Shown: positions 147 to 44,323 of the stretch, in pieces | Layout of the letters: every line of letters begins with the position of its first letter | How positions within the stretch are numbered: position 1 is the first letter of the stretch | Source of the DNA: a bacterium | Lineage (GTDB): Bacteria; Patescibacteriota; Minisyncoccia; Phycocordibacterales; JAKEFN01 | Length of the DNA stretch: 44,323 nt | NCBI GenBank assembly: GCA_022616085.1 | Contig: JAKEFN010000096.1 | Coordinates: 1 to 44,323, forward strand | Reading direction: 5' to 3' | Position numbers and translations under genes: made by a program | Notes under the pieces: generated by a model | Database searches by the model: none | Seen by the model: the letters and a program-made list of their open reading frames with translations, nothing else | Told to the model about the DNA's origin: nothing

Positions 147-1571
147 TTATGAACCAACAAAAATATCCATGAATTGCGGCACCGGAAGGGCGTCAAATCT
201 CTCCAGATCGTCAAAAAGTTCCAAAATTTTCTCCCTATGTCTGGAGGTGAAAAGCTTGTATTCGGATTCGGCTAGGTTTCGCGTAAACTTTTCCCGAATA
301 AGCGGGAGCGCTTCCTCGCGCCTCCGAGGATGGCCGAGCGGGAACTCTATCGCGATCTTTTTTGTCTGTTTCGGCTTCTTTTCAACAGTCGAATTTTTGA
401 AAAAGACCTGCACGGAGCTTCCGACCGAGCGAAGCGCCGGATCGTAATAATTGCGCGTAAACGCGTCATTCACCCGCACTTCCATTTTTGTGCGAAGTTC
501 GTCAATCCGCGAATCTTTTGCGGCATCATTCTCGTAATCTTCCGAAACAATGCCCCCCTTCAAGAGCGCGACCGCCACCGCATATTGAAGGCAGTGATCG
601 CGATCCGCGGGATTCTTGAGCGGGCCGGACTTATTAATAATCCGCCATGCCGGCTCTTGTGTTTCAATAACTATCCTCCTTATTTCCGGTATGCGATCAA
701 TAACTTCCGGACGAATCTTTATTGCCGCTTCCACCGCGGTTTGCGCGTGAAATTCCACAGGCGAGAGTTTGAACAGGATGTTTTCCATCACATACGATCC
801 ATATTGGAACCACTCCGGAAATTCAAACTCCTTCCCTCCCCAAAACACATCGTAAAATCCGTATGTAGGGGCGGTAAGTATTTTGGGATATCCGGGTTCG
901 CCGTGTAGAGATATAACCGCGAGCTCCACCGCTCGCTTCGCCGCATCTCCCGCGGCCCAGCATTTCCGCTGTCCTGTCTGCGGCGCATGCCGATATGCGC
1001 GAAGCGTTCCTCCGTCGCAAAAAACCTGCGAAATCACCGCGGCTATTCCCTCTTTGGAAAGTCCAAGGAGATGCGCCGAAACTGCGGCTGACGCGAGCTT
1101 CACAAGAATAACATGGTCAATGCCGCGCTTATTAAAGCTGTTTAGGAGCGCCATGCCGCCTTGAATATCATACGCTTTGATGAGCATGGTCAAAACATCC
1201 CGCATGGTTAACTTTACCCCGCACCGAGAAAGATAGCTAGCGACCGAAAGAATCGCGCCAAGGTTGTCGGACGGATGCCCCCATTCGGCTGCAAGCCATG
1301 TATCATTGTAATCAAGCCATCGGATTATTACCCCGAAAATGAATGCGCTAGAGGCGGTATCGATCTCAAACAGAGCTTCATCTATCGTGAGTGCGCGCGA
1401 TATAATAAAAGATCGGCAGTTATCACCCGCTTTCATCGCGCACCCCATGGCATCCATGAGCGCAAGGCGTGCAGTGTCGTATGCCGCTTCGTTCTCTATC
1501 GGTGTTTCAGCTACATACGTCGCGATGTCTTGAATAACCTGATCATATTCTTCAAACTGAATTGGTGTCAT
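147..1571 (-). CDS. prpD: MmgE/PrpD family protein (2-methylcitrate dehydratase-like)
   Basis: A 474-aa ORF whose length and sequence pattern are typical of the MmgE/PrpD family (e.g. ALMDAMGCA, WLDYNDTW, GHPSD). It overlaps the upstream citrate-synthase-like gene by 20 nt. Confidence 0.85.
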   Translation of the reverse strand: MTPIQFEEYDQVIQDIATYVAETPIENEAAYDTARLALMDAMGCAMKAGDNCRSFIISRALTIDEALFEIDTASSAFIFGVIIRWLDYNDTWLAAEWGHPSDNLGAILSVASYLSRCGVKLTMRDVLTMLIKAYDIQGGMALLNSFNKRGIDHVILVKLASAAVSAHLLGLSKEGIAAVISQVFCDGGTLRAYRHAPQTGQRKCWAAGDAAKRAVELAVISLHGEPGYPKILTAPTYGFYDVFWGGKEFEFPEWFQYGSYVMENILFKLSPVEFHAQTAVEAAIKIRPEVIDRIPEIRRIVIETQEPAWRIINKSGPLKNPADRDHCLQYAVAVALLKGGIVSEDYENDAAKDSRIDELRTKMEVRVNDAFTRNYYDPALRSVGSSVQVFFKNSTVEKKPKQTKKIAIEFPLGHPRRREEALPLIREKFTRNLAESEYKLFTSRHREKILELFDDLERFDALPVPQFMDIFVGS

Positions 1572-2679
1572 GCAATACCTCGTCCGGTTGCGACCCGATG
1601 TAGCGCGCCATGGGACGAATCAGTGTATCGAGCTCGCGCTGTTCAATGATATGCGCGATAGCCCCTGGCAAACGCCCGATTTCAAAGAGCGCGGTGAAAA
1701 AATGCTGGTCAATGCCGAAAAGGTGATACACAATCGCGGTATAAAAATCCACGTTCGGATAAAGATGTTTTTCTGCAAACATCGTCATTTCGATTACTTC
1801 GGCAATCTTAAGCAACTCCGTGCACGAACGTTCTCTGCACAAACGCCACGCATCTTTTTTTATGATACCACTCCGCGGATCGCCATGCTTATACATGCGA
1901 TGGCCGAATCCGGGGATTTTCTTTTTCTGGACAAGCATATTTTGGATGCCAATGAACGCATCTGCCAAATTCCCAAATGATAAAATAAGATCAAGCGAAT
2001 CCTCGCTCGCTTTGCCGTGAAGCGGCCCGTAGAGCGTGCAAATACCCGCGCAGATTGCCGAATATATGTCGACGCGCGTGCTTGCGCATACCCGTGTCGC
2101 AAATGTGGATGCATTGAGGTCGTGATCGCCATACCCGATAAGAGAACGGCCCATGGCGGCCGCATCCGTGCCCTCCCCGACCATACGGAGCGCATGTGCG
2201 GCAATACTCTCGGGCTTGTCGCCTTTTGGTTCTTTCCGCAATAGCTCTCCCAAAACCGCATTCCTGAAAAATCCAAGCATCGCGGGAAGAGCGCCCAAGA
2301 GCGTCGCGCCGATTTTACGCGCGCTTCGAGCTGACGGCGATTGCTCCGGAAACGCAATACCTTGCGCGGTTACGCCCACCTTAAGAACATCCATCGGGTG
2401 GGTCGTGCGCGGAAGCGATCCGATCGCCTGTTTTACGATTGTGTGGAGTTTCCTGCCACCCGCGACCCGCCGCATGAATTCCCGCTCTTCGGTATCATCC
2501 GGCAATTTTCCATACATGAGCAGATATGCAACCTGATCGTATGAGCAGTCCCTTACAAGCTTATCCAACGGGAAACCACGGTATATTAGGCCTTTTTCAT
2601 GTCCAACGCACGAAACCGCAGTCTCGCACACAACGACCCCCTCAAGCCCGGGAACGATAGGTAATTCGGTCTTTTTCAT
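1552..2679 (-). CDS. Citrate synthase family protein (citrate or 2-methylcitrate synthase)
   Basis: A 375-aa ORF with the citrate synthase signature GFGHRMYKHGDPRS. A GGAGG RBS lies 8 nt upstream of the ATG. Confidence 0.9.
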   Translation of the reverse strand: MKKTELPIVPGLEGVVVCETAVSCVGHEKGLIYRGFPLDKLVRDCSYDQVAYLLMYGKLPDDTEEREFMRRVAGGRKLHTIVKQAIGSLPRTTHPMDVLKVGVTAQGIAFPEQSPSARSARKIGATLLGALPAMLGFFRNAVLGELLRKEPKGDKPESIAAHALRMVGEGTDAAAMGRSLIGYGDHDLNASTFATRVCASTRVDIYSAICAGICTLYGPLHGKASEDSLDLILSFGNLADAFIGIQNMLVQKKKIPGFGHRMYKHGDPRSGIIKKDAWRLCRERSCTELLKIAEVIEMTMFAEKHLYPNVDFYTAIVYHLFGIDQHFFTALFEIGRLPGAIAHIIEQRELDTLIRPMARYIGSQPDEVLHDTNSV

Positions 2680-2826
2680 CTCTTATAACCTCCAAAAACT
2701 TTTCAAAAAGCTCTTTTGTGCGGCAAAAGCCGCCACCTGCTCTCATATCACCATAGAAACACAAAAAAAGAAAGACCTTGCCTTTTCTTTCCTCCTTCCC
2801 TCAATAGCGCGATTAAAAAAGAGCCA

Positions 2827-3879
2827 CTACCGCAAATATTTCCTTTTATTTTCTTTATGCTCCTCAAAATTGACCGCGTAATGCATATTCCCTTCCATAT
2901 CAGAGAGGTAAAAAAGATATTCGGATGGTTCGGGGTCAAATGCGGCGAGAATGGAATCAAGCCCGGGGTTCGCAATCGGCCCGACGGGAAGCCCTTTATA
3001 CTTATAGGTATTATAGGGGTTCGCAACGGCAAGATCGTCATAGGTGAGATCAAAAGTGCTCTTGCCGTTGATATAAAGAAACACCGCGTCAACCTGAAGC
3101 GGCATCCCCAATTCAAGCCTGTGCCAAAGTATGCCCGCTATCACGCGCTTGCTTTCGAATGTCCGCGCCTCCTTCTCAAGGATCGAAGCGAGTATGATAA
3201 TATCTGAAAGATTTTTGCCGCTCGCCTCGATAGTCTTTTTGAGTGGGTCGATGCGATCATAAAAGTTCCGATTCATCCGCGAAATTATATCGTAGACCGA
3301 TGCGGTCGGAAGAAAAAAATAAGTGTCCGGGAACAAATAACCTTCCTTGTCATGCGCGAGCGCAAAAAATTCATTTCGATTGAATGAAGGAAGCTTGCGG
3401 CTCAAAATATCTGCGATGTCCCATTTCGTCGCCCCTTCGGGAACGGTAACGCGGATTGCGGGAATGCCGCTCTCACCCGACAAAATACGATCTGAAACGG
3501 AAAAAAGCCATGTCGGCGTTCCAAAAAAATAATCGGTGGCAACGACGCCCGCCTCTCCGCGGAGCGACATAACGAGAAATCGAAGCGCGAATGGAGAGCG
3601 AATAATGCCCTCCTCTGCAAGAATATCCGCGGCATCGACAAGAGTCGCCCCTTCGGGAATCCGGACTATCGCGCCGGATGGAAAATCACGCGGCGGAGAA
3701 AAAGCGATATAAAAAAGCCCTGCGGCAAGGGCAAAAATGCCGAACGCCATTGTTGCTCTTTTCTGAAATATTCTATCAAGCAAAATTTTCTGAACATTCG
3801 CATCCGTATTTTTTAAAAAAACCGACAACGATTCGGCGAAGTGGATGTATTTTTCTTTTTTAGGAGGCATTCTTTCCAT
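2827..3879 (-). CDS. mltG: Endolytic murein transglycosylase MltG (YceG-like)
   Basis: A 350-aa ORF with an N-terminal TM helix and the YceG-type C-terminal pattern (LASILEKEA, NPYNTYKYKGLPVGPIANPG). Confidence 0.9.
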   Translation of the reverse strand: MERMPPKKEKYIHFAESLSVFLKNTDANVQKILLDRIFQKRATMAFGIFALAAGLFYIAFSPPRDFPSGAIVRIPEGATLVDAADILAEEGIIRSPFALRFLVMSLRGEAGVVATDYFFGTPTWLFSVSDRILSGESGIPAIRVTVPEGATKWDIADILSRKLPSFNRNEFFALAHDKEGYLFPDTYFFLPTASVYDIISRMNRNFYDRIDPLKKTIEASGKNLSDIIILASILEKEARTFESKRVIAGILWHRLELGMPLQVDAVFLYINGKSTFDLTYDDLAVANPYNTYKYKGLPVGPIANPGLDSILAAFDPEPSEYLFYLSDMEGNMHYAVNFEEHKENKRKYLR

Positions 3880-3882
3880 ATT

Positions 3883-5166
3883 TTAGCGCGGAAGGTTAAA
3901 CGGCGGCTCCGATTTCTTGGTTTCGATGCGGGCGAACGAAGGAGTCGTTACTGCGCTTGAAGGGAAGTGAAAAATAGTCGCAAGCTCCTCGGTATTGAGG
4001 ATTATAGGCGTTCGTGAATACGGCGCATGAAAATAGCTCCGCCGCCGGTATGCATCAATCATTTTACGCTTCTTAATGTTCGCGCGTATACCATTGAAAT
4101 CCTGCCACGGGTAATCGAAATCCGTCTCGCGGGTGAATTTGAACGCATTGAGGTCCATGGAACCGAATTGCTTGAATATATTCATAACACCAATAATGTT
4201 TTGGGATCGAAATGCGTGCGTCTTCGAGATATACATGACGCGGATACCGACATCAAAGCCGAGCTTCGAGATGCTCCGTTCGATGGCGTTAATCGTCTCC
4301 ATCTCCCCTTTCGTAAGGCGCCTATTCTCCACATCGGGCGGTATGGCGAGTTTTTGGACAAGCGCCTGGCCTTCCTCCCGCCAGTCAGTCGGTTTGCTGA
4401 AAAAAATTCCCTTGCGGGACGGCTTCGTCGCACGAAACATGATTTGAATCCAAAACTGCTCGTCTTTGCGTATAGAACCCAAAAACTCAATCACCGAAGC
4501 AAGCGGATCTATATATTGCTCCCTCTCCCTTATCTCGCCGCGATCCATGCCGTAATCGATATAGGTCCTAATGGGATAACAGTCCGGTTTGGTGAATTTA
4601 TACTCTGACCCCCACAGACCCCACTCTTCCCCTCCGGGATAGCCGTATGAGACATATTTCGTATAATCCGGAACTTCATGGATTTCGATAGTCGGAAACT
4701 GCGCATAAATATGAGACTCCACCCAGTTTTTGAATTCAGTCCGCGTCCAGATAAAATAATGCACCGTTCCTTCGATGGAAACCATCTCAAAAGAAAACCA
4801 TGTGCGCACCCTCCCTTGAACGCTCCGTTTGACCCAGGTGGATTCGCCGCTTGTGTTATGAAGCCCCGAAAGGACGATCTCCATGGCGAGCGGAGATTTT
4901 TCAACTTCCCGCGGCACCTTGAGTTCAAGCAGCGTATACGGCGTTGTGTGGATGAAGCGCGATCTGATATATCGCACCCAGGTATCCCAAAGCATCGCGC
5001 CGAGAATTATGGGGAGCCAGTACGGCGCGGTATAGGCGAACACGCGAAATATCTGGTTAACCGCATCTCCGTAGTATGCGCCGAGAAACGCATACAAACC
5101 GAAGCCGACAAGTATAAGCAAAATAATAAGCCCCAATACTGTCAAAATATCTTCAAGGATAGGCAT
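3883..5166 (-). CDS. Hypothetical membrane protein (two N-terminal TM helices, large soluble C-terminal part)
   Basis: The long ORF is 3883..5265. The start at M34 (MPILEDIL) is preferred because TGGTATAAT sits 7 nt upstream of that ATG. I do not recognise a family with confidence. Confidence 0.75.
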   Translation of the reverse strand: MPILEDILTVLGLIILLILVGFGLYAFLGAYYGDAVNQIFRVFAYTAPYWLPIILGAMLWDTWVRYIRSRFIHTTPYTLLELKVPREVEKSPLAMEIVLSGLHNTSGESTWVKRSVQGRVRTWFSFEMVSIEGTVHYFIWTRTEFKNWVESHIYAQFPTIEIHEVPDYTKYVSYGYPGGEEWGLWGSEYKFTKPDCYPIRTYIDYGMDRGEIREREQYIDPLASVIEFLGSIRKDEQFWIQIMFRATKPSRKGIFFSKPTDWREEGQALVQKLAIPPDVENRRLTKGEMETINAIERSISKLGFDVGIRVMYISKTHAFRSQNIIGVMNIFKQFGSMDLNAFKFTRETDFDYPWQDFNGIRANIKKRKMIDAYRRRSYFHAPYSRTPIILNTEELATIFHFPSSAVTTPSFARIETKKSEPPFNLPR

Positions 5167-6395: not shown

Positions 6396-6503
6396 ACTGA
6401 TTATGAATAAAAAGCTAATAAAACTATAGTTTATAACCTCATAGGAAAATCTAACACTATCCTTCTTTGCCGTCAAGAGATATCGGATATTCCCCCTACA
6501 GTA

Positions 6504-6665
6504 CTTTGAATTACGGAACTAAAGCCGTTACGAGAGTTTTTGGATTCGTGCGAGCCGAAACCGAACAATTTTTCGTTTAATGCCGTAGGTATTGCGAAAA
6601 ATTTTCGGGTTTGGCGTAGCCGAAGCCCAAAAAGTCGCAGTAGGACTTAGTTTCGTAATTCAAAG
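6504..6665. mobile_element. MITE-like palindromic element, copy 1 (162 bp)
   Basis: Terminal inverted repeats are ctttgaattacgGaactaa / ttagtttcgtaattcaaag, with a central ~50 nt identical to copy 2. It is flanked by the direct repeat tacagta (6497-6503 and 6666-6672). The leuS stop codon lies inside its right terminus. Confidence 0.85.
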
Positions 6666-9086
6666 TACAGTAACAATATTGAGGACTTTCCCGGGTATAT
6701 AGATAGTCTTCTTTACTTTTCCCGCGCCAACCCATTTTTTTATGCGTTCATCACGCAGCGCTTCTTCCAAAATCTCATTTTCTCTACTCGAAACTTGGGT
6801 GATAAGCGTGCCCCGCACCTTGCCATTCACCTGTATGGCGATAGTCTGCGCCTCGACGACGATTTTGTCCGCGTCATATAGAGGCCACGGCTCATGAAGA
6901 ATGGGGTGTTCATGGCCGAGCGACTCCCATATCTCTTCCGCGATGTGCGGCGCGAAGGGAGCAAGAAGCATCAAAAACGAAACGAAATAGTCAGTCGGAA
7001 TAGATCCTCGTTTCTCAAGCTCATTGCTAAAAATCATCATCTGCGAAATCGCCGTATTAAATCGCATCGCCTCAATGTCTTCCGAAACTTTTTTTATCGT
7101 CTGATGAAGAAGCGCTTCCAACTCTTTATCCGCCGTATCTGAAACTCCTTTATCAACTTTTTCGCGAAGCCCCCATACTTTTTCCAGAAAACGCCGCGGA
7201 CCAATAAGGCTATCTTCGCTCCAACCGATCGCCTGTTCAAATGGCCCCATAAACATTTCATACAAACGAAGCGTATCAGCTCCGTAGTGATCCACAATAT
7301 CGTCCGGATTGACAACGTTTCCTTTTGATTTGCTCATCTTGACCCCGCCTTCCGCGAGTATGAGTCCGTGTGATGTCCTCTTTGCGTAAGGTTCGGAGAC
7401 CGGCACTGCGCCAATATCAAACAAAAATTTATTCCAAAAACGCGAATAGAGGAGATGAAGCGTTGTGTGTTCCATTCCGCCGTTGTACCAGTCGACAGGC
7501 ATCCAATAATCAAGCTTTTCTTTATCCGCAAGCGCAGTCTTATTTTCTGTATCACAATACCGCAAAAAATACCATGACGATCCGGCCCAGTTCGGCATCA
7601 CATCCGTCTCGCGGCGAGCCGGACCGCCGCATTTCGGGCACGTTGTATTCACCCATTCGGCAATATTCGCAAGCGGCGACTCCCCGGTGTCGGTCGGCTC
7701 ATATTTTTGCACATCAGGGAGCACAACCGGCAGATCCTCTTCGGAAACCGGCGTCCAGCCACATTCCTTGCAAAAAATCATCGGTATGGGTTCTCCCCAA
7801 TAACGCTGGCGCGAAAAAACCCAATCGCGAAGTTTGTATGTCGTTTTTTGTTTTCCGCCGACAAATTCGATAATTTTCTTTTTCGCTTCTTCATTCGCCA
7901 TGCCATCAAATGCTCCTGATCCGACAAGATGCCCCGCCCCCGTGTAGGCATGATCGAGAACCGGACATGTTTTTTCCGGGTAATGAGGACACACAACCAT
8001 CTTTATCGGCAGATCATATTTTTTTGCAAACTCAAAATCCCGCTCGTCATGCGCGGGAACCGCCATGATGGCGCCGGTGCCGACATCGCCCAACACATAA
8101 TTGACAACCCACACCGGAATTTTTTCGCCGTTTGCAGGATTGACAGCAAAGATTCCCGCATCAACTCCTGTTTTTTCTTTTTCCTCGAAATCTCTCGCTC
8201 TGCGCGATGCAAATTCATTCGCCGCATACTTTTTCACCTCTTCGTTTGCCTGCCAGCCGATATCGAGCCATTTTTTTGCAAGATCGGGTGAAACTGCCAG
8301 AAACGTCGCGCCGAAAATAGTATCCGGCCTTGTGGTGAAGATTTTTACAGAATGTTTCCCGTCTTCCTGTCCTGGAATTCCCGAGAGCTTGAAATCAATT
8401 TCTGCACCATCGCTCTTCCCTATCCAATTTCTCTGCTGTGTTTTTATTTTCTCCAAATAATCCACGCTATCCAAATCTTTGAGCAGTCTGTCGGCGTATT
8501 TCGTGATTTTAAGCATCCATTGCTCTTTCTCGCGCTTCTCGGTCGCGCCGCCGCAACGCTCGCATTTCCCATCCACGACTTCTTCGTTCGCGAGGCCGAT
8601 TTTGCACGAAAAGCACCAGTTGATGGCTATTTTTGCCTTATACGCGAGTCCGTGTTTATACAATTGAAGAAAAATCCACTGGGTCCATATATAGTATGCG
8701 GGATCGCTTGTATTTATTTCGCGCGACCAGTCAAACGAGATGCCAAGCGCTTTGAGTTGGCGCCTGAAATTGTCGGTATTTTTTTTGGTAACCTCGCGGG
8801 GATGGATGCCCGTTTTGATGGCGTAGTTTTCGGTCGGAAGTCCGAATGCGTCCCAGCCTATGGGAAAAAGAACGTTATAGCCCTCGGCTCGGCGTTTCCG
8901 CGCTATCACATCCATTGCGGTATAGCTCCTCACGTGTCCGGCATGAATTCCGTCTCCTGATGGGTAGGGAAACTCAATAAGGCAATAATATTTTTTTTCA
9001 TTGCCGTCTTCCGCGCCGAATGAATTATCGCGCTCCCACCGCTCCTGCCACTTTTTTTCAATTTCTTTATGATCGTATTTCCGCAT
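6660..9086 (-). CDS. leuS: Leucyl-tRNA synthetase
   Basis: Class I aaRS with the HIGH-type motif (HAGH) and KMSKS, in typical LeuS architecture. The start at M14 (MRKYDHKEIEKKWQ) is preferred. The last codons and the TGA come from the MITE terminus. Confidence 0.95.
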   Translation of the reverse strand: MRKYDHKEIEKKWQERWERDNSFGAEDGNEKKYYCLIEFPYPSGDGIHAGHVRSYTAMDVIARKRRAEGYNVLFPIGWDAFGLPTENYAIKTGIHPREVTKKNTDNFRRQLKALGISFDWSREINTSDPAYYIWTQWIFLQLYKHGLAYKAKIAINWCFSCKIGLANEEVVDGKCERCGGATEKREKEQWMLKITKYADRLLKDLDSVDYLEKIKTQQRNWIGKSDGAEIDFKLSGIPGQEDGKHSVKIFTTRPDTIFGATFLAVSPDLAKKWLDIGWQANEEVKKYAANEFASRRARDFEEKEKTGVDAGIFAVNPANGEKIPVWVVNYVLGDVGTGAIMAVPAHDERDFEFAKKYDLPIKMVVCPHYPEKTCPVLDHAYTGAGHLVGSGAFDGMANEEAKKKIIEFVGGKQKTTYKLRDWVFSRQRYWGEPIPMIFCKECGWTPVSEEDLPVVLPDVQKYEPTDTGESPLANIAEWVNTTCPKCGGPARRETDVMPNWAGSSWYFLRYCDTENKTALADKEKLDYWMPVDWYNGGMEHTTLHLLYSRFWNKFLFDIGAVPVSEPYAKRTSHGLILAEGGVKMSKSKGNVVNPDDIVDHYGADTLRLYEMFMGPFEQAIGWSEDSLIGPRRFLEKVWGLREKVDKGVSDTADKELEALLHQTIKKVSEDIEAMRFNTAISQMMIFSNELEKRGSIPTDYFVSFLMLLAPFAPHIAEEIWESLGHEHPILHEPWPLYDADKIVVEAQTIAIQVNGKVRGTLITQVSSRENEILEEALRDERIKKWVGAGKVKKTIYIPGKVLNIVTVL

Positions 9087-9192
9087 AGATAGAAAGTTCT
9101 TGACAGTATACAAAATAGTATGCAAAACGCAAGCTTGCGTGCGCGCCTCTCCTGCGGTAGTTTAAAAAATAGTTTATGCGAAGGATTTAACT

Positions 9193-9815: not shown

Positions 9816-10898
9816 TTAAATCTTAAATTCAATCACGTCGCCGTCTTTCGCGATGTATTCTTTGCCTTCAGTGCGAACTTTGCCCTCCTCGCGGGCTTTT
9901 GCATACGAGCCGGCACGAAGAAGGTCTTCCCAGAAAATAATTTCGGCGCGGATGAACTTGTCGCGGAAGTCTGTGTGGATCGCGGCGCCGGCTTCGCGGG
10001 CCGTAGAACCCTTTTTGATCGTCCACGCGCGCGATTCGTCCTCGCCTGTCGTAAAAAAAGTGATAAGGTCAAGAAGCGCATAACTCTCGCGGATAAGCGC
10101 GTCAATACCGCCCGTTTCCCCAATCATATCTTTCAACTGTTTTTTTTCTTCTTCAGAAAGCTCGGAGAGTTCCGCTTCGCTTCGCGCGTCTACGCATACA
10201 ATGTGTGCGCCGTTTTTTTCAAGATACTGTTTCAACTCCGCGAAACCTTCGCCTGAAGGCGCATCCTCGCCCGAAATAATATTAAGCACATAAAGCACGG
10301 GCTTCATCGTAATGAGTCCGAGCTCTTTTATCTTTTTACCCTCTTCCTCGTCAAGAATCGCCTCGCGCGCGGGTTTTTCGGCTTCAAGAAGGGTGACAAT
10401 TTTATCGATCGCGCGCGAGAATACCGCCGCGTCTTTGTCGCCGCGCTTCACGTCCCGCTCCAAACTTCCCTTCCGCTTGGTTGAGGTCTCGAGATCGGCA
10501 AGAATCAGTTCAAGATCAATTGTTTCCATGTCCGCGAGCGGATTGACGTTTCCCGCAACATGCAAAACCGCCTTCTTTTCAAAAAACCGGACCACATGCG
10601 CTATGGCATCCGTCTCGCGAATGTGCGAGAGAAACTGATTGCCGAGGCCTTCGCCTTTGTGCGCGCCGGCGACGAGTCCCGCGATGTCGACAAATTGGAT
10701 GGCGGCGGGAACCGTTTTTTTTGAATGCGAAAACACCGAGAGCTTCGCGAGCCGCTCGTCCGGCACGGCAACAACCCCGACAGAGGGGTCAATGGTGCAA
10801 AATGGATAATTTTCCGCCGGCACGCTCTTTTTGGTTAATGCGTTAAAAAGCGTGCTTTTCCCGACATTCGGGAGGCCGACAATGCCGATATTGAGCAT
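9816..10898 (-). CDS. ychF: Redox-regulated ATPase YchF (Obg-family GTP/ATP-binding protein)
   Basis: N-terminal P-loop [18 protein letters not shown], the TGS-like C-terminus and a 360-aa length typical of YchF. Confidence 0.95.
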
Positions 10899-10903
10899 AA
10901 ATT

Positions 10904-11281
10904 TTAGAGATCATCAGGAGAGAGTCCGGTATGTTTTCCAATACGAGACAACATACGAGGACCAATCTCTTCACGATCATGAAATGCAAATGTCTTTGAA
11001 TTACGAAACTAAATTCGTTACGAGAGTTTTTGGCTTCGAGCGAACCGAACCAGAATAATTTTTCGTTTAATGCCGTAGGTATTGCGAAAAATTTTCGGGT
11101 TTGGCGCAGTCGAAGTCCAAAAGCTCGCAGCAGGATTTAGTTTCGTAATTCAAAGAAATGTATAATCCGGCCAACCGGTTCTGCCGAGTATACGGTGAGA
11201 GCCTTTCTGCCGTTTGATATGCCAGCCAAGGCGAAAAAGTGCGCCCAAAACATGTGATGCTTTAACGGCGCGCCATTCCAT
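10904..11281 (-). pseudogene. hicA: hicA toxin gene interrupted by MITE copy 2
   Basis: The N-fragment 11150..11281 encodes MEWRAVKASHVLGALFRLGWHIKRQKGSHRILGRTGWPDYTF, then L-stop from the MITE. The C-fragment 10904..10993 encodes TFAFHDREEIGPRMLSRIGKHTGLSPDDL-stop. Removing the element plus one aaatgt copy restores a 69-aa HicA-like ORF in frame. Confidence 0.85.
10994..11155. mobile_element. MITE-like palindromic element, copy 2 (162 bp)
   Basis: It has the same termini and central core as copy 1. The 6-bp direct repeat aaatgt lies at 10988-10993 and 11156-11161. It is inserted within hicA. Confidence 0.9.
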
Positions 11282-11513
11282 GTTCCGTAAACAAAGAAGA
11301 AATCTGTATCGGCACCTTCTTATTTTCTATTGCATAAGCAAGCGTGCGAAGCGCTACTGCATATACTCTCCGCTCCGCATCTTTTTTGGTCGCGCCGTAT
11401 GACATCACGCCGAGCAGTTTTGGGATTTCCGCAATCCAGCGGCCGTCTTCTTCGCGGTCAAATTCCACAACATACGACCGTATAATAGCGCCTTTTTCTT
11501 TTTTAATCATCAA
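11262..11513 (-). CDS. hicB: HicB-family antitoxin (UPF0150-like)
   Basis: An 83-aa ORF with the pattern YVVEFDREEDGRWIAEIPKLLGVMSYGATKKDAERR typical of the HicB N-domain. Its stop overlaps the hicA start. Confidence 0.75.
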   Translation of the reverse strand: MMIKKEKGAIIRSYVVEFDREEDGRWIAEIPKLLGVMSYGATKKDAERRVYAVALRTLAYAIENKKVPIQISSLFTEHGMARR

Positions 11514-11610
11514 TAAAGAATACTGAATAGAAAATCAAAAATCAAGCATTCATTCTTGACTTCTGTCATAAAAATGCAATTATCTAATCAGGCAAAAATG
11601 GACAGAACAC

Positions 11611-12771
11611 GTGGAACAAAACAAACGAGTAGACAGTATTTTATTCGTCGGCATAGGCGGCGGCAACGATGTCTTTTCAGGAATTCTTGCGTCACTTTCG
11701 CTCAAACGACTCGGATGGAAATGGGGGCGCGCTGATTTTGCGGGCGTGTTGAGCCCGTTCCACCACCATACCGGCTCACTCGCCGAAATGCAGGGGGTGA
11801 TAAAAATTAACCCCGATTCAAAACGATTCCTCATTAGAAACAACTATCAAAAAGAGATAGTATTTGTAGACAACGCGGTTGCACTGCTTTTCAAAAATAT
11901 TCCGGATTACAAAAAGAGCGGCTTATTCGGTCTATCGCTTGCACATGGTTCACGCGGTTTTTCAAAAACATTGAGCGTACTCTCAAGGATGTACGAAAAA
12001 ATTGTTCTTGTAGATCTCGGGGGCGACTGCTTCTATGGCGGAGTGCGGGATCGGCACGTCTTAAGCCCTATGTTTGACGCGATCGCGCTTCGCGGATTTA
12101 TCGACTCCGGCGCAGAAGGATTTTTGTTCGAAGCCGGACCAGGAACAGACGGGGAGCTTGAGCCGGAAGCGCTCCTTGAATCATTCACGCGTGCGGAAGC
12201 CGAACCGCATCCGATCCAAGCTGATACCATTTCTGAATGGGAAAGTCTCTACAAAAAGTGGATACTTCCGGTACGAGAAGGGCGAACCGTCCCGATGACC
12301 ATACAAGCGTTTCATTCGAATGAAAAAGAGTTACTGCTTCCGTATAGAGCTCGCGCTCATATGGGAGATACCCGATTATACAAAAATTTTAACCAGCGGA
12401 TATATACGGATCTTTGCCGGCAATTCTTCATCGTAGATCCGAAAAAAATAAAAAACCCGTTCATGGTTGAATGTGGAAACCCCCTTGAATGGTTCGAAAA
12501 AACTCAAGCCGTAATACAAAAGACTAATTGCGAGGCGAACCTGGAGTATTTCCTCTATAACGGGCAACTCTGCCAATTCCTCACCCCGTCGCCCCTTCTG
12601 GACGCGTGTGACAGACGCACATTTATCTCGCAGGGGCTCGAAGACTTATGCTCCGGCGCGTGCGACAGAGTATGGATGTTCCCTTCGGATTTGGAATCTA
12701 TTGATCGCGAATGGACCCGAAAAGCCAGGGTTGCGGGAGTGGGCAAATTACTCACTATTGAACGAAATTGA
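11611..12771 (+). CDS. Hypothetical protein, DUF1152-like (tentative)
   Basis: A 386-aa ORF with a GTG start. The motifs GIGGGNDV and VDLGGD recall DUF1152 proteins. The assignment is from memory of the family, not a search. Confidence 0.7.
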   Translation: MEQNKRVDSILFVGIGGGNDVFSGILASLSLKRLGWKWGRADFAGVLSPFHHHTGSLAEMQGVIKINPDSKRFLIRNNYQKEIVFVDNAVALLFKNIPDYKKSGLFGLSLAHGSRGFSKTLSVLSRMYEKIVLVDLGGDCFYGGVRDRHVLSPMFDAIALRGFIDSGAEGFLFEAGPGTDGELEPEALLESFTRAEAEPHPIQADTISEWESLYKKWILPVREGRTVPMTIQAFHSNEKELLLPYRARAHMGDTRLYKNFNQRIYTDLCRQFFIVDPKKIKNPFMVECGNPLEWFEKTQAVIQKTNCEANLEYFLYNGQLCQFLTPSPLLDACDRRTFISQGLEDLCSGACDRVWMFPSDLESIDREWTRKARVAGVGKLLTIERN

Positions 12772-12777
12772 ATAGCT

Positions 12778-12811
12778 AAGGTCTCGCCGGAAATATGCGA
12801 GGCCTTTTTAC
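12778..12811. terminator. Bidirectional hairpin between convergent genes
   Basis: aaggtctcgc-cggaaatat-gcgaggcctt with a T-run on the plus side. Confidence 0.55.
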
Positions 12812-13035
12812 TTTTTCATCATGCCTTGAAGCTCTGTCCGATAGTTTTGCATGACTGCTTGAGTGGCCGCCATTTGGTCTTCGCCTTTGTCCATGCGCGC
12901 TTTTATTTCAAGCGCGATTTTTTGGAAGAATTCAGGGTTATCCGAAACCACCTGGATTATTTTCTCCTGCTCGGACTCGGGCATGCCGGCGAGCTGTTTC
13001 TTCATAATTTTTCGTATAAAAAATTCTTTAAACAT
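12808..13035 (-). CDS. Hypothetical small protein (75 aa)
   Basis: The ORF-track entry is 12808..13128. The start at M32 is preferred because TGTTAAAAT sits 7 nt upstream of that ATG. Confidence 0.6.
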   Translation of the reverse strand: MFKEFFIRKIMKKQLAGMPESEQEKIIQVVSDNPEFFQKIALEIKARMDKGEDQMAATQAVMQNYRTELQGMMKK

Positions 13036-16931: not shown

Positions 16932-16988
16932 TCATTATAAAACATTGTTATCCTACAAAAAATGACTTACAGTTTCAATAGATATAGT

Positions 16989-17070
16989 GCCGACGTGGCG
17001 GAATTGGTATACGCGCATGGCTTAGGACCATGTGCCGCAAGGCTTGTGAGTTCGAGTCTCACCGTCGGCA
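16989..17070 (+). tRNA. tRNA-Leu (anticodon TAG)
   Basis: Hand-folded cloverleaf. The acceptor is GCCGACG/CGTCGGC, and the anticodon stem CATGG/CCATG carries the loop CTTAGGA. It has a long variable arm, T arm GTGAG-TTCGAGT-CTCAC and discriminator A. No CCA is encoded. Confidence 0.9.
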
Positions 17071-17358
17071 TATTTGAACAAAGTGAAAAATGCCGCGGGG
17101 AGACTCGAACGGGAAGGGGGACGGGGAAACACCTGTTTCCACGTGGAGGAAGTTCACGAAACCGTGGGTTTCGTGAGAGCGAGGGACGAGCGACGTTTGA
17201 TTCTCACCGTCGGCATTTTGAATGCAATGAAAAATGCCGCGGAGAGGCTCGAACACGAAAGGGGTCGGGAAAACTGTAGTTTTCCCGTGGAGGAAGTTCA
17301 CGAAACCGAGGGTTTCGTGGGAGCGAGGGACGAGCGACGTTTGATTCTCACCGTCGGC
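17071..17358 (+). repeat. Two tandem 144-bp units, each ending in a degenerate copy of the tRNA-Leu 3' end
   Basis: The units start near 17071 and 17215. Each ends in tttgattctcaccgtcggcat, compared with ttcgagtctcaccgtcggcat in the tRNA. Both units contain two conserved hairpins. Confidence 0.85.
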
Positions 17359-17386
17359 ATATTGAATAGAAACAATACTCTCCCCG

Positions 17387-24244: not shown

Positions 24245-24279
24245 CTTTAACTCTAGACTTACGAAGTCTAGAGTTAAAG
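24245..24279. repeat. REP-like perfect hairpin (16-bp stem)
   Basis: ctttaactctagactt-acg-aagtctagagttaaag. Confidence 0.85.
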
Positions 24280-24291
24280 GCATTAACTACC

Positions 24292-24987
24292 TTACTCTAA
24301 CATCATGACTTTATAATCAGGGCTGTCATCGATACTGAAATTTTTAAGCTCTTCTTTAACGGATTTCCGGTATTTTTCTTCTCCGCCAAAAAAATCAAGA
24401 AAATATCCTCTTTGGGTTACTGCCGGGAAATTTTTCTTTCCAAGGTAGTCCAGATGACTGCTCCAGCGATAATTTTCAAGGAAAGAAAGCGCGTCATTGG
24501 TGTTTTTAATTTTTCGGCCCCGCCAATCATGGCCTGATAAATCAAGCGGATTGAAATGAATATAATAAGGGATAAAAAGAAAATGACGGTCGTTTTCTAT
24601 ATAAAACCTCTTAAATCTCCCCTGGAATAAAGCTCCCACCCTTTGATATTTCTCGTTGAAATATTTTGCATATCCTATATTGAGCTTTGTCATAAATTTT
24701 GTAATACCCCCATCGATAACCGGAGAGAGAAGAAGATGATAGTGGTTTGGCATCAAAGCGAAACAATGAATGTTCACCAAAAGTTCACGCGGTTCTTTTT
24801 TTTGATCATAATATTTCAAACCCCTTTCAAGGTTCTGCGCAAAATAAAAATTATTTGAAGAGGCCTTCGATCGATCGTTGAACTCAAACAAATCGTGAAC
24901 GAAACGAAAATAGTCTTTCTTGTCATTAAAAATTAACCGCTTGTCAACACCGCGGTTGAGAACATGATAAAATTCCATATTTTGCAT
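24292..24987 (-). CDS. IS200-like / REP-associated tyrosine (Y1) transposase
   Basis: YHVLNRG...CFALMPNHYHLLL (HUH motif)...GALFQGRFKRF...YIHFNPL fits the Y1_Tnp (PF01797) pattern. It is 231 aa. Confidence 0.88.
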   Translation of the reverse strand: MQNMEFYHVLNRGVDKRLIFNDKKDYFRFVHDLFEFNDRSKASSNNFYFAQNLERGLKYYDQKKEPRELLVNIHCFALMPNHYHLLLSPVIDGGITKFMTKLNIGYAKYFNEKYQRVGALFQGRFKRFYIENDRHFLFIPYYIHFNPLDLSGHDWRGRKIKNTNDALSFLENYRWSSHLDYLGKKNFPAVTQRGYFLDFFGGEEKYRKSVKEELKNFSIDDSPDYKVMMLE

Positions 24988-25001
24988 TCGTATAATTATA
25001 C

Positions 25002-25026
25002 ACTCTAGACTTCGTAAGTCTAGAGT
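25002..25026. repeat. REP-like hairpin, inverted copy
   Basis: actctagactt-cgt-aagtctagagt. Confidence 0.85.
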
Positions 25027-26206: not shown

Positions 26207-29200
26207 TCATTTTTTTGCAACCAAATGAAGCAGTATGCTCTTCCCCCCGACTTCCGCTTTTTCGCCTTTCTCCAAATCGACAAAGCGCATATCCGAAAGC
26301 CCTGCGGCTTTTTTGAGATACTCCAAAGAATCCGCCAAATCCTCTTCGACAGTGCGGCTTATTTCGAGAACGGCGCGGTCGGACGGCGCAAGCGCCGCAA
26401 TCTTCCGAAGCCCTTGTATGCTCCGGAGTATTTCTCTCAAATCTCCTTCTTTTTTGAGCGCCGGCGTAATTTCGGTGTCAAGCGTTACCTCCGCCGCATC
26501 GCCGAAACGGGCATCCTTCACATTCACCTCGTCGAGCACGACCTCGATAGTATTCGGAAGACTCCATGCGTTCGGGATCGTTACCTTTCCGAGCGGCTGT
26601 CTCACGCGAATGCCCGCGCGGCTCCGCTTCTCGAGGATGACATTCACGGCATCGCGCGCACGGCCCATCTCCGCGATAATTTTTTCTTCATGTCCGGAAA
26701 AATCCTCGCTCCACCATTCTGCGAGGTGAACGCTCTCGGGATCGCTCTCGCCGCGAACCTCCCTGTATACGCGCTCGGCGATAAACGGCATGAAGGGGGC
26801 GATTATTTTTGAAAAATTCAAAAGAACGAAGCGGGTCGTTCGAAGAGCGCGGAGAGTGTCTTCGCGGTCGTCTCCTTTAAAGCGTTCGCGCGAACGGCGA
26901 AGATACCATGTGGAGAGGTCATCGATAAAAAGACCGATGGGGCGCACCGCCGCCTCGATATCATACGCGTCCATCTGTTCGGCTACACCGATCGAAAGTT
27001 CGCGGAGCCGCGCGAGAATCCACTGGTCGAGAACGTGCCCGCTCTCGCGCTCCGAATCCCCCACATCGAACGATCCCTTGTAAAGCATGTAAAAAGAAAG
27101 CACGTTATCAAGCCGAAGTATGTTTTTTTTATAAATCTCGTCGACTCCCTTTTCGGAAAAATGAAGGTCTTCTGATTTCATAATCGGAGAGGAGAAGAGA
27201 TAGAGCCGAAGGGCGTCAACGCCGTATGTGTCGATGAGAATGTTCGGATCGGGAAAATTCCCTTTTGATTTGGACATTTTTGCGCCGTCTTCGGCGAGAA
27301 CAGTGCCGGTCGTTACGATATTTTTGAATGGAATCTCATCAAACAAAATAACGGAAATAACGTGCGTATAATAAAACCATGTTCTCGTCTGGGCGATATA
27401 TTCAGCGACAAAATCCGCCGGAAAATTCCGCTTTTCAAATTCTTTCTTGTTCTCGAACGGATAGTGGAACTGCGCGAACGGCATGGAGCCTGATTCGAAC
27501 CAGCAGTCAACCACTTCGGAGATGCGCCGCATTACTCCGCCGCATCCTGCCGAATCGCAGGGCCAGACAAACGCATCAATATAGGGCCGATGGAGATCAA
27601 GCTCATAATTCCTATTATGAGGGAACGGCGCGTATTCGATCGCGCGGACGTCGGCGTTCCCAAAAATCGAGTATTTGCCTCCCCAAAGATCCGCCGCCGC
27701 GGAGTCGTCGAGTCCCCGCGCCGCCGCGAGAAGAAGCCCCATGGGCGCGTCATGCATGACAAAAAGAATGTTCTTTCCTTCATGGGAATCCTCAAAAGAA
27801 ACGAGAGCGTCGCCTATTCGTTTTTTTATGTCATGGTAGTCTTCGCCGCCGATTTTCTCGGTGAAGCGATCTTTTACCGATTTGAAATGCCGATGGTATT
27901 CGTCCACGGATTTCCCTTCGAATGTTCCGCCGGATACTTCGCGAATCCGATCATCTATATGAAGCGCGCTCTCCGGAAGGCCAAGCTCCTCGCGCATAAT
28001 CTCCGCAGTTTCCCGCGCCCGAAGAATCGGAGAGGAAACGATAAGATCAATTGCCGCCTCTTTCTTCAATTTCGATGCGGCGGATTTTGATTGATCCCGT
28101 CCCAAAGGCGTCAGATGATGAGCATCTTCTTGGAGGGTGCCGAGAGTGTTTTTTACATTATTTTCGGACTCGCCGTGCCGCATGGCGAAATATCTGTTCC
28201 GAGGCTTCACTCGCTTCTTTAGATCGTCAAGCGAACCCATGACTTCAATCGCGCCGCACGCAGAGCATTTCCAAAAAGGAAGCGGAGACGCCCAGAAACG
28301 ATTGCGGGAGATGTTCCAATCCGGCGCGCTTTCGACTATTTTTTTATATCGGCCCTCTTTCAAATGCTCCGGAATCCAGTTGATTTTTTCATTTGTTTTG
28401 AGGACGCGGTTCTTTATCGGATCGATTTTGATGAACCATGCCGGCAAGGCGTAATAGAGAAGCGGCGTTTCGCACCGAAAACAATGCGGGTATGAATGCT
28501 TGATTGTTTCTTTTGCAAAAAGCGCCCCGCGAACGGCGAGAGACCTAAGCATCTCTATATCGGCGGCTTTGTGATTGTCTTTCGGCTTCACCGGTATCCC
28601 TTGGAACAGTGGCTCTCCGGATACATCGGCAAAATTGTCTTTGAATTTTCCCTCGGGAGTCACGTGCCAAACGATCGGCAGATTTTCTTTCTTCGCGAGA
28701 CTCATATCATCCTCCCCGAACGCGGGAGCGATGTGGACGATTCCCGTTCCTTCATCCGTTGTTACGAAATCGGCGCCATACACCTTCCAGCCGTTCTCGC
28801 GGTTTTTCAAATTCTTTTCTTTCTCATAATAGCCAAAAAGCGGTTTATATTTTTTACCGATGAGGTCTCGACCGGAAAATTCATCCGTTATTGCTAATCT
28901 TATTTGTTTAAAAATAAACGCTCCGTCCCCCTCTCTGTATTTTTCATCATCCAGAATATTTTTTGCCACAATAACAAATTTTTCTTCCGATGAAACAAGA
29001 CCATGCGTATTCGATCCGGCAAAAACTTTCGCTTTCACATAAACAATCTCCGGATTCACCGCAAGCGCGGTATTCCCCGGCAATGTCCACGGAGTGGTCG
29101 TCCACGCAAGGAGATATGTCCCGGGCAGATCGGCAAGCTCAAACTTCACATACGCCGAAATGTCGCTTATATCCTTATAGCTTCCGTCCATCGCAATTTC

Positions 29201-29785
29201 CGCATTTGCAATAGGCGTCTCGCACCGCGGGCAATACGGAAGAACGCGCGTTCCTTCATAGATGAAACCTTTGCCCCAAATTTCTTTAAGCGCCCACCAG
29301 ACAGACTCGATAAACGTATTGTCCATCGTCTTGTATGATCCGTCAAAATCAACCCACCGCCCGATCCGCTCCACCGTTTTTTTCCATTCCGCGGCATAAG
29401 CAAGGACGGACCCGCGCGCGCGTTCATTGAATATATCCACCCCGAGTTTTTCTATCTCGCGCTTGCCCGAAATTTTCAAATCCTTTTCCACGATGTTCTC
29501 AATCGGAAGCCCGTGGCAATCCCATCCCCACACGCGCCGGACAGAACGCCCTTTCATGGTCTTGTAGCGCGGTATGGCGTCTTTAATGACGCTCGCAAGA
29601 ATATGTCCGTAATGCGGAAGACCGGTCGCAAATGGAGGGCCGTCGTAGAAAACAAAAGGCTTCCCGTCCTTCGTCTTTTCAAGCGTTTTTTCAAAAATCC
29701 CATTTCCGCGCCAAAAAGAGAGCGTTTCCTCCTCGCGAAGCGCCACAGCGGATTTTTTGGTTTTTTTTGCTTCATTTTCAGCCAT
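26207..29785 (-). CDS. ileS: Isoleucyl-tRNA synthetase with an internal histidine-phosphatase-like domain
   Basis: HIGH-type PHYGH, KMSKS, a CP1 editing region (TTTPWTLPGN) and a 1192-aa length. Residues ~529-722 (RYFAMRHGESENN...) look like a phosphoglycerate-mutase-family module. Confidence 0.93.
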   Translation of the reverse strand: MAENEAKKTKKSAVALREEETLSFWRGNGIFEKTLEKTKDGKPFVFYDGPPFATGLPHYGHILASVIKDAIPRYKTMKGRSVRRVWGWDCHGLPIENIVEKDLKISGKREIEKLGVDIFNERARGSVLAYAAEWKKTVERIGRWVDFDGSYKTMDNTFIESVWWALKEIWGKGFIYEGTRVLPYCPRCETPIANAEIAMDGSYKDISDISAYVKFELADLPGTYLLAWTTTPWTLPGNTALAVNPEIVYVKAKVFAGSNTHGLVSSEEKFVIVAKNILDDEKYREGDGAFIFKQIRLAITDEFSGRDLIGKKYKPLFGYYEKEKNLKNRENGWKVYGADFVTTDEGTGIVHIAPAFGEDDMSLAKKENLPIVWHVTPEGKFKDNFADVSGEPLFQGIPVKPKDNHKAADIEMLRSLAVRGALFAKETIKHSYPHCFRCETPLLYYALPAWFIKIDPIKNRVLKTNEKINWIPEHLKEGRYKKIVESAPDWNISRNRFWASPLPFWKCSACGAIEVMGSLDDLKKRVKPRNRYFAMRHGESENNVKNTLGTLQEDAHHLTPLGRDQSKSAASKLKKEAAIDLIVSSPILRARETAEIMREELGLPESALHIDDRIREVSGGTFEGKSVDEYHRHFKSVKDRFTEKIGGEDYHDIKKRIGDALVSFEDSHEGKNILFVMHDAPMGLLLAAARGLDDSAAADLWGGKYSIFGNADVRAIEYAPFPHNRNYELDLHRPYIDAFVWPCDSAGCGGVMRRISEVVDCWFESGSMPFAQFHYPFENKKEFEKRNFPADFVAEYIAQTRTWFYYTHVISVILFDEIPFKNIVTTGTVLAEDGAKMSKSKGNFPDPNILIDTYGVDALRLYLFSSPIMKSEDLHFSEKGVDEIYKKNILRLDNVLSFYMLYKGSFDVGDSERESGHVLDQWILARLRELSIGVAEQMDAYDIEAAVRPIGLFIDDLSTWYLRRSRERFKGDDREDTLRALRTTRFVLLNFSKIIAPFMPFIAERVYREVRGESDPESVHLAEWWSEDFSGHEEKIIAEMGRARDAVNVILEKRSRAGIRVRQPLGKVTIPNAWSLPNTIEVVLDEVNVKDARFGDAAEVTLDTEITPALKKEGDLREILRSIQGLRKIAALAPSDRAVLEISRTVEEDLADSLEYLKKAAGLSDMRFVDLEKGEKAEVGGKSILLHLVAKK

Positions 29786-44188: not shown

Positions 44189-44215
44189 CCCCGCATACGC
44201 ACGGGGATTTTTTGA
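44189..44215 (+). terminator. Rho-independent terminator
   Basis: ccccg-catacgca-cgggg followed by attttttt. Confidence 0.7.
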
Positions 44216-44223
44216 ACATGCTC

Positions 44224-44323
44224 TAGAGCATGTTCAAAAACTCTTGACTACTGCGAATTCATGTTGCGGGCTGCAAACGGCGGCTCGGAAAGCTCAAAAT
44301 ATCAACAATATTCTTCGCTTTCC
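44224..44323. repeat. Right copy of the ~99-bp inverted repeat (partner of 1-99)
   Basis: The reverse complement of 44224-44321 matches 1-99. Its inner end forms a 32-bp perfect palindrome with the preceding 16 nt. Confidence 0.85.

Follow-up and report, generated by a model that had tools for sequence, protein, structure and literature searches.

A miniature inverted-repeat element with IS982-type ends in the hicA gene of an uncultured Patescibacteria bacterium

Results

The hicBA locus and the inserted element

Contig JAKEFN010000096.1 of assembly GCA_022616085.1, which we analyzed over its whole length of 44,323 nucleotides (hereafter the window), belongs to the chromosome of an uncultured Patescibacteria (Parcubacteria/Paceibacteria-like) bacterium. 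On its minus strand, at about 11 kb, lies a hicB-hicA toxin-antitoxin pair in which hicA, the toxin gene, is divided by a 162-bp sequence that we interpret as a transposable element of the miniature inverted-repeat kind (MITE). The locus comprises the following features:

9816–10898, minus strand: ychF, beginning 6 nt after the hicA stop
10904–10993, minus strand: hicA 3′ fragment, codons 41–69 plus the TAA stop, with no usable in-frame start codon
10988–10993: target-site duplication AAATGT on the ychF-proximal side (ACATTT, Thr-Phe, on the coding strand)
10994–11155, 162 bp, no strand assigned: MITE copy 2, inside hicA, with perfect 21-bp terminal inverted repeats (CTTTGAATTACGAAACTAAAT), the whole element being a near-palindrome
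11156–11161: target-site duplication AAATGT on the hicB-proximal side
11156–11281, minus strand: hicA 5′ fragment, codons 1–42; its open reading frame (ORF) reaches 11150 and ends in Leu-TGA supplied by the MITE end (43 aa)
11262–11510, minus strand: hicB, an intact 82-aa short form with the HicB N-terminal domain only; stop at 11262–11264

On the plus strand the sequence reads ...GAAATGCAAATGT up to the element, which runs from CTTTGAATTACGAAACTAAAT to ATTTAGTTTCGTAATTCAAAG, and AAATGTATAATCC... beyond it (in short form, ...GCAAATGT/CTTTGAATTACGAAACTAAAT...ATTTAGTTTCGTAATTCAAAG/AAATGTATAA). The minus-strand ORF from 11281 to 11150 encodes MEWRAVKASHVLGALFRLGWHIKRQKGSHRILGRTGWPDYTF (MEWRAV...WPDYTF) and then reads CTT TGA from the element end; on the far side of the element the same frame resumes as TFAFHDREEIGPRMLSRIGKHTGLSPDDL, followed by a stop. 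Including the duplication, the insertion amounts to 168 bp, and in silico excision of 10994–11161 (the element plus one copy of the repeat) produces the empty site ...GGCCGGATTATACATTTGCATTTCATGATCG... and a 69-aa ORF. A first-pass annotation, made from the letters of the window, had described hicA as split by a 162-bp MITE with a 6-bp target-site duplication, the two gene fragments lying in one frame and being restorable by excision; we found this description to hold base for base, with an exact duplication. The inverted repeats, the exact duplication, and the restorable ORF together are a direct display of transposition.

The element is short and lacks a transposase gene, as all six of its frames are either closed or shorter than 47 codons, and a protein search with the longest open frame found no homologue. 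With up to three mismatches allowed, the window contains its 21-mer terminus four times, against an expectation of 0.00 (100 shuffles). The 162 bp fold as a single long hairpin (−67 kcal/mol as RNA, z = −12), and an Rfam search with them returned no match, to an intron or otherwise. In the hicA frame the element contains TGA, TAA, and TAG codons; we considered an alternative genetic code that reads through the element and rejected it because TAA and TAG are in frame as well as TGA. An alternative boundary, ACTTTG...CAAAGT with a shorter duplication, was also rejected, as it fails for copy 2.

The interrupted gene encodes a HicA toxin

The first-pass annotation had proposed a check with the Pfam family HicA_toxin (PF07927): at a cutoff of 27 bits, the restored ORF reaches 41.7 bits and covers profile positions 4–58 of 58, whereas the truncated 43-aa product stays below the cutoff at 25.3 bits and covers positions 4–27 only. 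A search of 5.8 billion proteins found 733 homologues of the restored protein. The best 120 of these are 72–83% identical to it with 97–100% coverage, and nearly all are exactly 69 aa long; the named sources among them are Kaiserbacteria, Parcubacteria, and Paceibacterota, all of them Patescibacteria. Aligned with 23 homologues, the restored protein shows no gap where the fragments meet (...WPDYTF/AFHDREEIGPRML...) and has each of the 22 residues that are invariant on either side of that point. The 3′ fragment retains every family-invariant residue of its part of the protein, and neither fragment carries further disabling mutations. At the level of DNA, the restored junction reads GAT TAT ACA TTT GCA TTT CAT GAT, and the corresponding stretch of uninterrupted homologous genes reads GAT ACT ACT TTT GCA TTT CAC GAT (contigs L001 and L002) or GAC TAT ACG TTT GCC TTT CAT GAC (contig L004).

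Single-sequence and profile searches of the PDB with HicA and HicB gave marginal matches only, so that a fold comparison was needed for both proteins, and NCBIfam contains no model matching the HicA or HicB of the window. The AlphaFold model of restored HicA (predicted local distance difference test score, pLDDT, 90.6) has a helix-strand-strand-strand-helix order, with helices at residues 8–17 and 52–62 and strands at 21–26, 29–33, and 40–43. The top six Foldseek matches of this model in the PDB are all HicA proteins (1whz, 4p78_C, 6g26_E/F, 5yrz_B, and 4c26), with template modeling (TM) scores of 0.60–0.77 (query-normalized) and a probability of 1.00. Ser28 and His29, of the Gly-Ser-His motif, are invariant in the 24 aligned sequences and are kept in restored HicA; in other HicA proteins the histidine of the Ser-His motif has a catalytic role. 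The restored ORF is that of a HicA toxin of a type II pair, and its product would be expected to act as an mRNA interferase that HicB neutralizes.

With the CTT TGA of the element terminus in the hicA frame, translation would stop after residue 42 and one additional leucine. Of the double-stranded-RNA-binding-like fold, the product would retain helix 1 and strands 1 and 2, with the Ser-His motif, but strand 3 would lose its end, and the conserved FAFHDREEIGPRML segment and helix 2 would be missing. The FAFHDREEIGPRML segment is the most conserved part of HicA and is removed by the insertion. Given the loss of these three parts, the toxin is, judging from the model, almost certainly inactive. 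The first-pass statement that the insertion inactivates the toxin is thus supported by the premature stop and the missing C-terminal half of the HicA fold, the inactivity itself being a prediction from structure.

A second copy lies at the end of leuS

A low-stringency search of the 44-kb window detected only two copies of the 162-bp element. The other copy is situated in the last codons of the gene for leucyl-tRNA synthetase (LeuRS), leuS:

6497–6503: target-site duplication TACAGTA (7 bp), left of copy 1
6504–6665, 162 bp: MITE copy 1, in the same orientation as copy 2 and 90% identical to it
6666–6672: target-site duplication TACAGTA (7 bp), right of copy 1
6660–9125, minus strand: leuS ORF, whose stop (6660–6662) is the TGA of the MITE terminus

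The two copies are 4,490 bp apart, and the similarity between the two loci is bounded exactly by the element ends. The termini of copy 1 carry one and two mismatches. As in hicA, the CTT TGA of the element end terminates the leuS product, which ends ...VLNIVTVL, and the displaced original tail (GGISDIS and a stop) is found at 6473–6496, beyond the element. Since solved LeuRS chains terminate one or two residues past the aligned LNIV/LNLV motif, only a non-conserved tail of leuS has been replaced.

Most of the 16 differences between copies 1 and 2 break the hairpin: eight of the ten changed pairs are broken and none is compensated. The palindrome therefore reflects the origin of the element, with no sign of selection on RNA structure. 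An independent assembly of the same locus (Logan contig L006, SRR16971108) breaks inside the element.

The termini are shared with elements of other Patescibacteria, including an IS982-type insertion sequence

To look beyond the window, we scanned 185,579 species-representative genomes for the terminus CTTTGAATTACGRAACTAA and obtained 58 loci that carry it (L007–L064). About 50 are in metagenome-assembled genomes (MAGs) named as Patescibacteria lineages, namely Saccharibacteria and Magasanik-, Moran-, Staskawicz-, Portnoy-, Nomura-, Falkow-, and Doudnabacteria. Up to 13 contigs of one MAG carry the terminus (13 in a single Saccharibacteria MAG), and roughly half of the 58 loci are within about 150 nt of a contig end; together, the many contigs per MAG and the contig-end positions are the signature of a multi-copy repeat. 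Outside the window, similarity to the element is confined to the outer 19–25 nt, termini of 16–19 nt (CTTTGAATTACGAAAC) being common to the related elements and the interiors being unrelated and MAG-specific. Complete elements with both termini comprise 17 of 122–219 bp and one of 1005 bp; exact AT-rich duplications of 6–8 bp flank 13 of these 18, the full-length insertion sequence (IS) included.

Six hits belong to MAGs that carry the label Bacteroidales, Marinilabiliaceae, Gammaproteobacteria, or Bdellovibrionales; among them, L053 holds an element that is complete, with 165 bp. Chance, mis-binning of contigs, or transfer may account for these six.

The 1005-bp element (6598–7602 of contig L010, from a Magasanikbacteria MAG) carries these termini, too, and is flanked by a duplication of 6 bp, TAACTA; one of its ends agrees with the window element in 24 of its 25 outermost nt, the other over the outer ~19 nt. 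Its 267-aa protein scores 102.6 bits with Pfam DDE_Tnp_1_3 (cutoff 27) and 129.7 bits with NCBIfam transpos_IS982 (cutoff 130), the next family, IS5, reaching 43 bits. A second transposase, 43% identical to that of L010, adjoins the same terminus in contig L026. The L010 element thus has the form of an IS982-type parent, about 1 kb long with a single ORF for a DDE transposase of that type. IS982-family duplications are 3–9 bp long (ISfinder), and those flanking the elements described here (6–8 bp, including AAATGT with 6 bp and TACAGTA with 7 bp in the window) fall within that range. The identification of the inserted sequence as a MITE, also made in the first-pass annotation, is therefore supported by its inverted repeats, its non-coding nature, a second copy with a duplication of its own, and termini in common with an autonomous IS982-family element.

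Viral contigs were scanned as well. The MITE core had no match in them; 14 IMG/VR contigs (L068–L081) carry the 19-mer terminus, 13 as a G variant, none with a partner terminus within 120–1,000 bp. In three (L073, L074, and L079) a partner with three mismatches lies about 6.2 kb away, at identical spacing. We rejected these hits as elements because no partner is present at element distance; they probably represent a conserved phage gene. A literature search found no paper linking MITEs or IS982 with Patescibacteria.

The antitoxin gene and its neighbour

The hicA start codon (ATG, at 11281) overlaps the end of hicB by 20 nt, and the same 20-nt overlap, with hicB upstream, is present in the homologous loci of contigs L001, L002, L003, and L004. 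As the first-pass annotation had stated, hicB is intact: it is uninterrupted and of full length relative to its homologues. Its identity as hicB is upheld by the HicB N-terminal fold, with the qualification that the protein is short, has no DNA-binding domain, and matches its own Pfam family only below threshold (UPF0150, 18 bits with a cutoff of 27.3, E = 0.0027).

The 82-aa protein has 2,498 homologue representatives at E ≤ 0.001; among 61 homologues, 51 match UPF0150 and 17 match HicB_lk_antitox (E ≤ 0.01). In its AlphaFold model (pLDDT 82), three strands and a helix are followed by a low-confidence segment, residues 63–82, that forms no domain. The top Foldseek matches are Burkholderia pseudomallei HicB (6g1c, 6g1n, and 6g26), TTHA0281, Escherichia coli HicB3 and HicB (6hpb), and Yersinia pestis HicB3, with probabilities of 0.99–1.00 and E-values of 0.03–0.14, and they assign to the protein the partial RNase H-like N-terminal fold of HicB. 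The canonical C-terminal DNA-binding domain (ribbon-helix-helix or helix-turn-helix) was not found in the 82 residues. A member of the same 90%-identity cluster, from assembly GCA_022615705.1 and encoded by a gene that differs by 2 nt, bears the NCBI name "HicB family antitoxin". From the predicted fold, the family-level matches, and the operon position, we assign the upstream ORF as a short-form HicB. With its toxin gene interrupted, it would now be an orphan antitoxin.

The neighbouring ychF is probably co-transcribed with hicBA and hence downstream of the MITE hairpin. Speculatively, a near-perfect 162-nt hairpin between hicB and ychF, on the same strand, may alter ychF expression. A scan for promoters and terminators around the locus gave nothing above shuffled background.

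On contig L001, which encodes the closest HicA homologue, a second, different hicBA pair (7135–7603) specifies a 73-aa HicA and an 86-aa HicB_lk_antitox protein, and just upstream of the first pair an ORF at 705–4181 encodes a 1158-aa protein with intein/HINT and Peptidase_S74 domains.

Near-identical strains carry the insertion or a deletion variant

A contig of assembly GCA_022615705.1 (L066) is 99.8% identical to the window over 1,361 bp that span hicB, the MITE, the hicA 3′ fragment, and the 5′ end of ychF; all three of its mismatches are outside the MITE and hicA. The L006 contig is identical to the window up to its end inside the element and so confirms one junction.

One junction is likewise confirmed by contig JAKEEO010000049.1 of assembly GCA_022616485.1 (L067), which is 97.5% identical to the window over 4,189 bp. 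Only the final 38 nt of the MITE are left in it, together with the duplication, the 3′ part of hicA, and ychF. An unrelated sequence of about 40 nt stands in place of window positions 11032–12769, which hold the remainder of the MITE, the 5′ part of hicA, hicB, and a DUF1152 gene, and adjoins what corresponds to 12770–12868 of the window; these first 99 nt of L067 are 100% identical to the window (L067 1–176 compared with window 11032–12869). The HicB and DUF1152 protein clusters have no member from GCA_022616485.1, and the cluster of a neighbouring gene has one. L067, a single contig, may represent a later loss of the orphan antitoxin or be chimeric. Should it be genuine, the strains would have split after the insertion, and one of them would have lost the antitoxin later; the loss of the toxin and then of the antitoxin would be the expected order of decay. 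As it is common to assemblies that are 99.8% and 97.5% identical to the window, the insertion is not brand new.

The first-pass annotation had further proposed that related genomes be compared for the empty site. Here the outcome was negative: exact look-ups and the cluster members of YchF, HicB, the DUF1152 protein, and their neighbours led only to the same or near-identical strains, which carry either the insertion (L006, L066, and L082) or the deletion variant (L067). Apart from these near-identical carriers, the closest YchF among the 5.8 billion proteins is 67% identical, so that no orthologous locus is available for such a comparison. A single metagenome contig (L065) matched the restored-junction 22-mer; it shares nothing with the locus beyond the 22-mer, and we rejected it as a chance match.

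Other features of the window

The ends of the window, 1–99 and 44224–44321, are reverse complements of each other over 98–99 nt, with one 1-nt indel at position 30, and a local palindrome, TTTTTGAACATGCTCTA/GAGCATGTTCAAAAA, occupies the right inner edge (44206–44245). The inverted ends are probably an assembly fold-back or inverted repeat copies flanking the contig.

At 16988–17363, a tRNA-Leu (anticodon TAG) is followed by two tandem units of 144 nt (17073–17216 and 17217–17360) that are 87% identical, and in each the 3′ end of the tRNA (GTTTGATTCTCACCGTCGGCAT) is repeated at the close of the unit; only the first tRNA is recognized by ARAGORN and Rfam, and the independent assembly L006 breaks within the units, at 17171. 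The units could be repeats that derive from the tRNA, or they could have been left behind by serial integration at it.

A 231-aa ORF on the minus strand at 24292–24987 matches Pfam Y1_Tnp (IS200-like; 30 bits, cutoff 23) and is flanked by two perfect 25-nt palindromes, ACTCTAGACTT(ACG/CGT)AAGTCTAGAGT. The whole unit, 24250–25026, is a tyrosine transposase unit, either IS200-like or associated with repetitive extragenic palindromes (REPs), and thus a second, unrelated mobile element.

Also on the minus strand, 26207–29785 encodes a class I aminoacyl-tRNA synthetase of 1192 aa whose domains are those of the isoleucyl type; a histidine phosphatase domain (His_Phos_1, residues 534–699, 110.9 bits) lies inside its catalytic domain, an unusual domain insertion.

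Discussion

The explanation that we consider very probable is that a non-autonomous MITE inserted at codon 42/43 of the toxin gene, hicA, in a type II pair with the gene order hicB-hicA. By its sequence, the element is a MITE with the ends of an IS982-type clade found across Patescibacteria. An IS982-family DDE transposase acting in trans would recognize the CTTTGAATTACGAAAC termini and mobilize the element: the enzyme would bind both ends, excise or copy the element, and insert it at a target cut with a stagger of 6–8 bp, and repair of the gaps would then leave the 6-bp AAATGT duplication, as is expected by analogy with the established chemistry of DDE transposases.

We weighed this explanation against three others. 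That the 162-bp repeat was mis-threaded into hicA during assembly, the true genome having an intact hicA, might be suspected from the way the repeat breaks assemblies, with L006 ending inside the element and many related elements situated at contig ends, and from the odd inverted ends of the window itself. However, both junctions are spanned, with no difference in sequence, by L066, a contig from a separate MAG, and the element's end, the adjoining repeat, and the 3′ part of hicA recur independently in L067. A direct repeat of 6 bp that matches exactly on the two sides points to transposition rather than to assembly, and the protein collection holds no intact hicA product more than 83% identical; we therefore regard an artefact as extremely improbable. 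Confusion with a generic palindromic repeat of the kind mobilized by Y1 tyrosine transposases (REPs or bacterial interspersed mosaic elements), rather than a DDE-type MITE, is suggested by the nearly complete palindromy of the element and by the Y1_Tnp protein with its flanking palindromes at 24250–25026. REPs and IS200/IS605 elements make no target-site duplications, whereas duplications of 6–8 bp are the rule here; moreover, the MITE termini bear no relation to the palindromes (ACTCTAGACTT...) beside the Y1 gene, and they also bound an IS982-type DDE element, which makes a REP-like origin very unlikely.

A third possibility is that the insertion is an intervening sequence, removed from RNA or DNA in an intron-like manner or by programmed excision, so that functional HicA is made and the insertion has a regulatory role. 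The length of 168 bp, duplication included, is a multiple of three, the hairpin is very stable, and the two hicA fragments have kept all invariant residues with no further disabling mutations. The last of these points carries little surprise, as decay need not yet be expected in some 90–130 nt at a strain divergence of about 2.5%. Against this reading, the element has TGA, TAA, and TAG codons in frame and matches no Rfam family, and it is fully accounted for by inverted-repeat ends with target duplications and by the presence of these ends on an element of the IS982 type. Splicing would be purposeless for the second copy, which lies at the end of a gene, and of the ten hairpin pairs changed between the copies eight are broken and none is compensated. 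Removal as an intervening sequence is accordingly also very unlikely.

Several observations weigh against the insertion of an IS982-mobilized MITE that we favor. An empty site was not found in any collection searched, and only two copies of the 162-bp subfamily were seen. No IS982 transposase is encoded within the 44-kb window, and the NCBIfam IS982 score of the L010 transposase is 0.3 bits under the curated equivalog cutoff. Only the outer 19–25 nt are shared with the IS and with the other MITEs, and it is from these that we infer a link in trans to a specific parent; the loss of toxin activity, similarly, is deduced from missing structure in a model.

We tentatively extend our explanation, giving the extension slightly less than even weight: the element may be a member of an undescribed, phylum-wide MITE superfamily of Patescibacteria (the candidate phyla radiation, CPR), defined by an IS982-type terminus of 16–19 nt and lineage-specific interiors, and the hicBA locus may show stepwise decay of a toxin-antitoxin system. 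In such a course the MITE would have killed the toxin first, and the 97.5% identical sister strain would then have lost all but the end of the MITE, together with the 5′ part of hicA, hicB, and the neighbouring DUF1152 gene.

The nearest described counterpart of the element is a MITE of about 240 bp in the Cardinium endosymbiont cOegib, which is derived from the IS982-family element ISCca4 (PMC9769881). Both are short and without a transposase gene, have inverted repeats matching an IS982-family element, and can interrupt genes; like the Cardinium element, that of the window, with two copies in 44 kb, may be a high-copy repeat of a reduced genome. They differ in size (162 versus ~240 bp) and in host phylum, here Patescibacteria, and the interior of the window element is unrelated to the sole full-length IS found, which sits in another genome; this comparison is one of descriptions, not of sequences.

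Like the HicAB systems of B. pseudomallei (6g26), Y. pestis (HicA3B3, 4p78), and E. coli (6hpb), the pair in the window combines the HicA fold and Ser-His motif with the HicB N-terminal fold, and its genes overlap in the order hicB, then hicA. Unlike in those systems, its HicB is 82 aa long, without the DNA-binding domain found at the C-terminus of HicB proteins of 135–145 aa, and resembles instead the stand-alone Thermus proteins TTHA0281 (2dsy, 80 aa) and 2yzt, and its toxin gene is interrupted.

Bacterial MITEs are known to disrupt genes, examples being the Correia elements of Neisseria and the RUP elements of Streptococcus pneumoniae. To our knowledge, loss of the toxin with the antitoxin intact is the only order of toxin-antitoxin loss that is not self-poisoning. 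The locus conforms to both patterns, with a toxin predicted to be inactive and an intact antitoxin, and we found no mechanistic difference; what is specific to it is the host lineage and the element family. A MITE, mobilization of the IS982 type, and a disrupted HicAB toxin are all of known kinds, so that the event is an ordinary one, which opens no new mechanism or long-standing question; the breadth of the terminus family across Patescibacteria is mildly novel.

The locus nevertheless offers a clean example of transposition in a lineage usually called streamlined and poor in mobile DNA, and, with the toxin lost first, it agrees with the order in which toxin-antitoxin systems are expected to decay. 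The conserved terminus is the mark of a family of repeats that break up MAG assemblies of Patescibacteria and are able to truncate genes. Since the MITE supplies the stop codons of both hicA and leuS, recognizing it should be useful for the annotation of Patescibacteria genomes.

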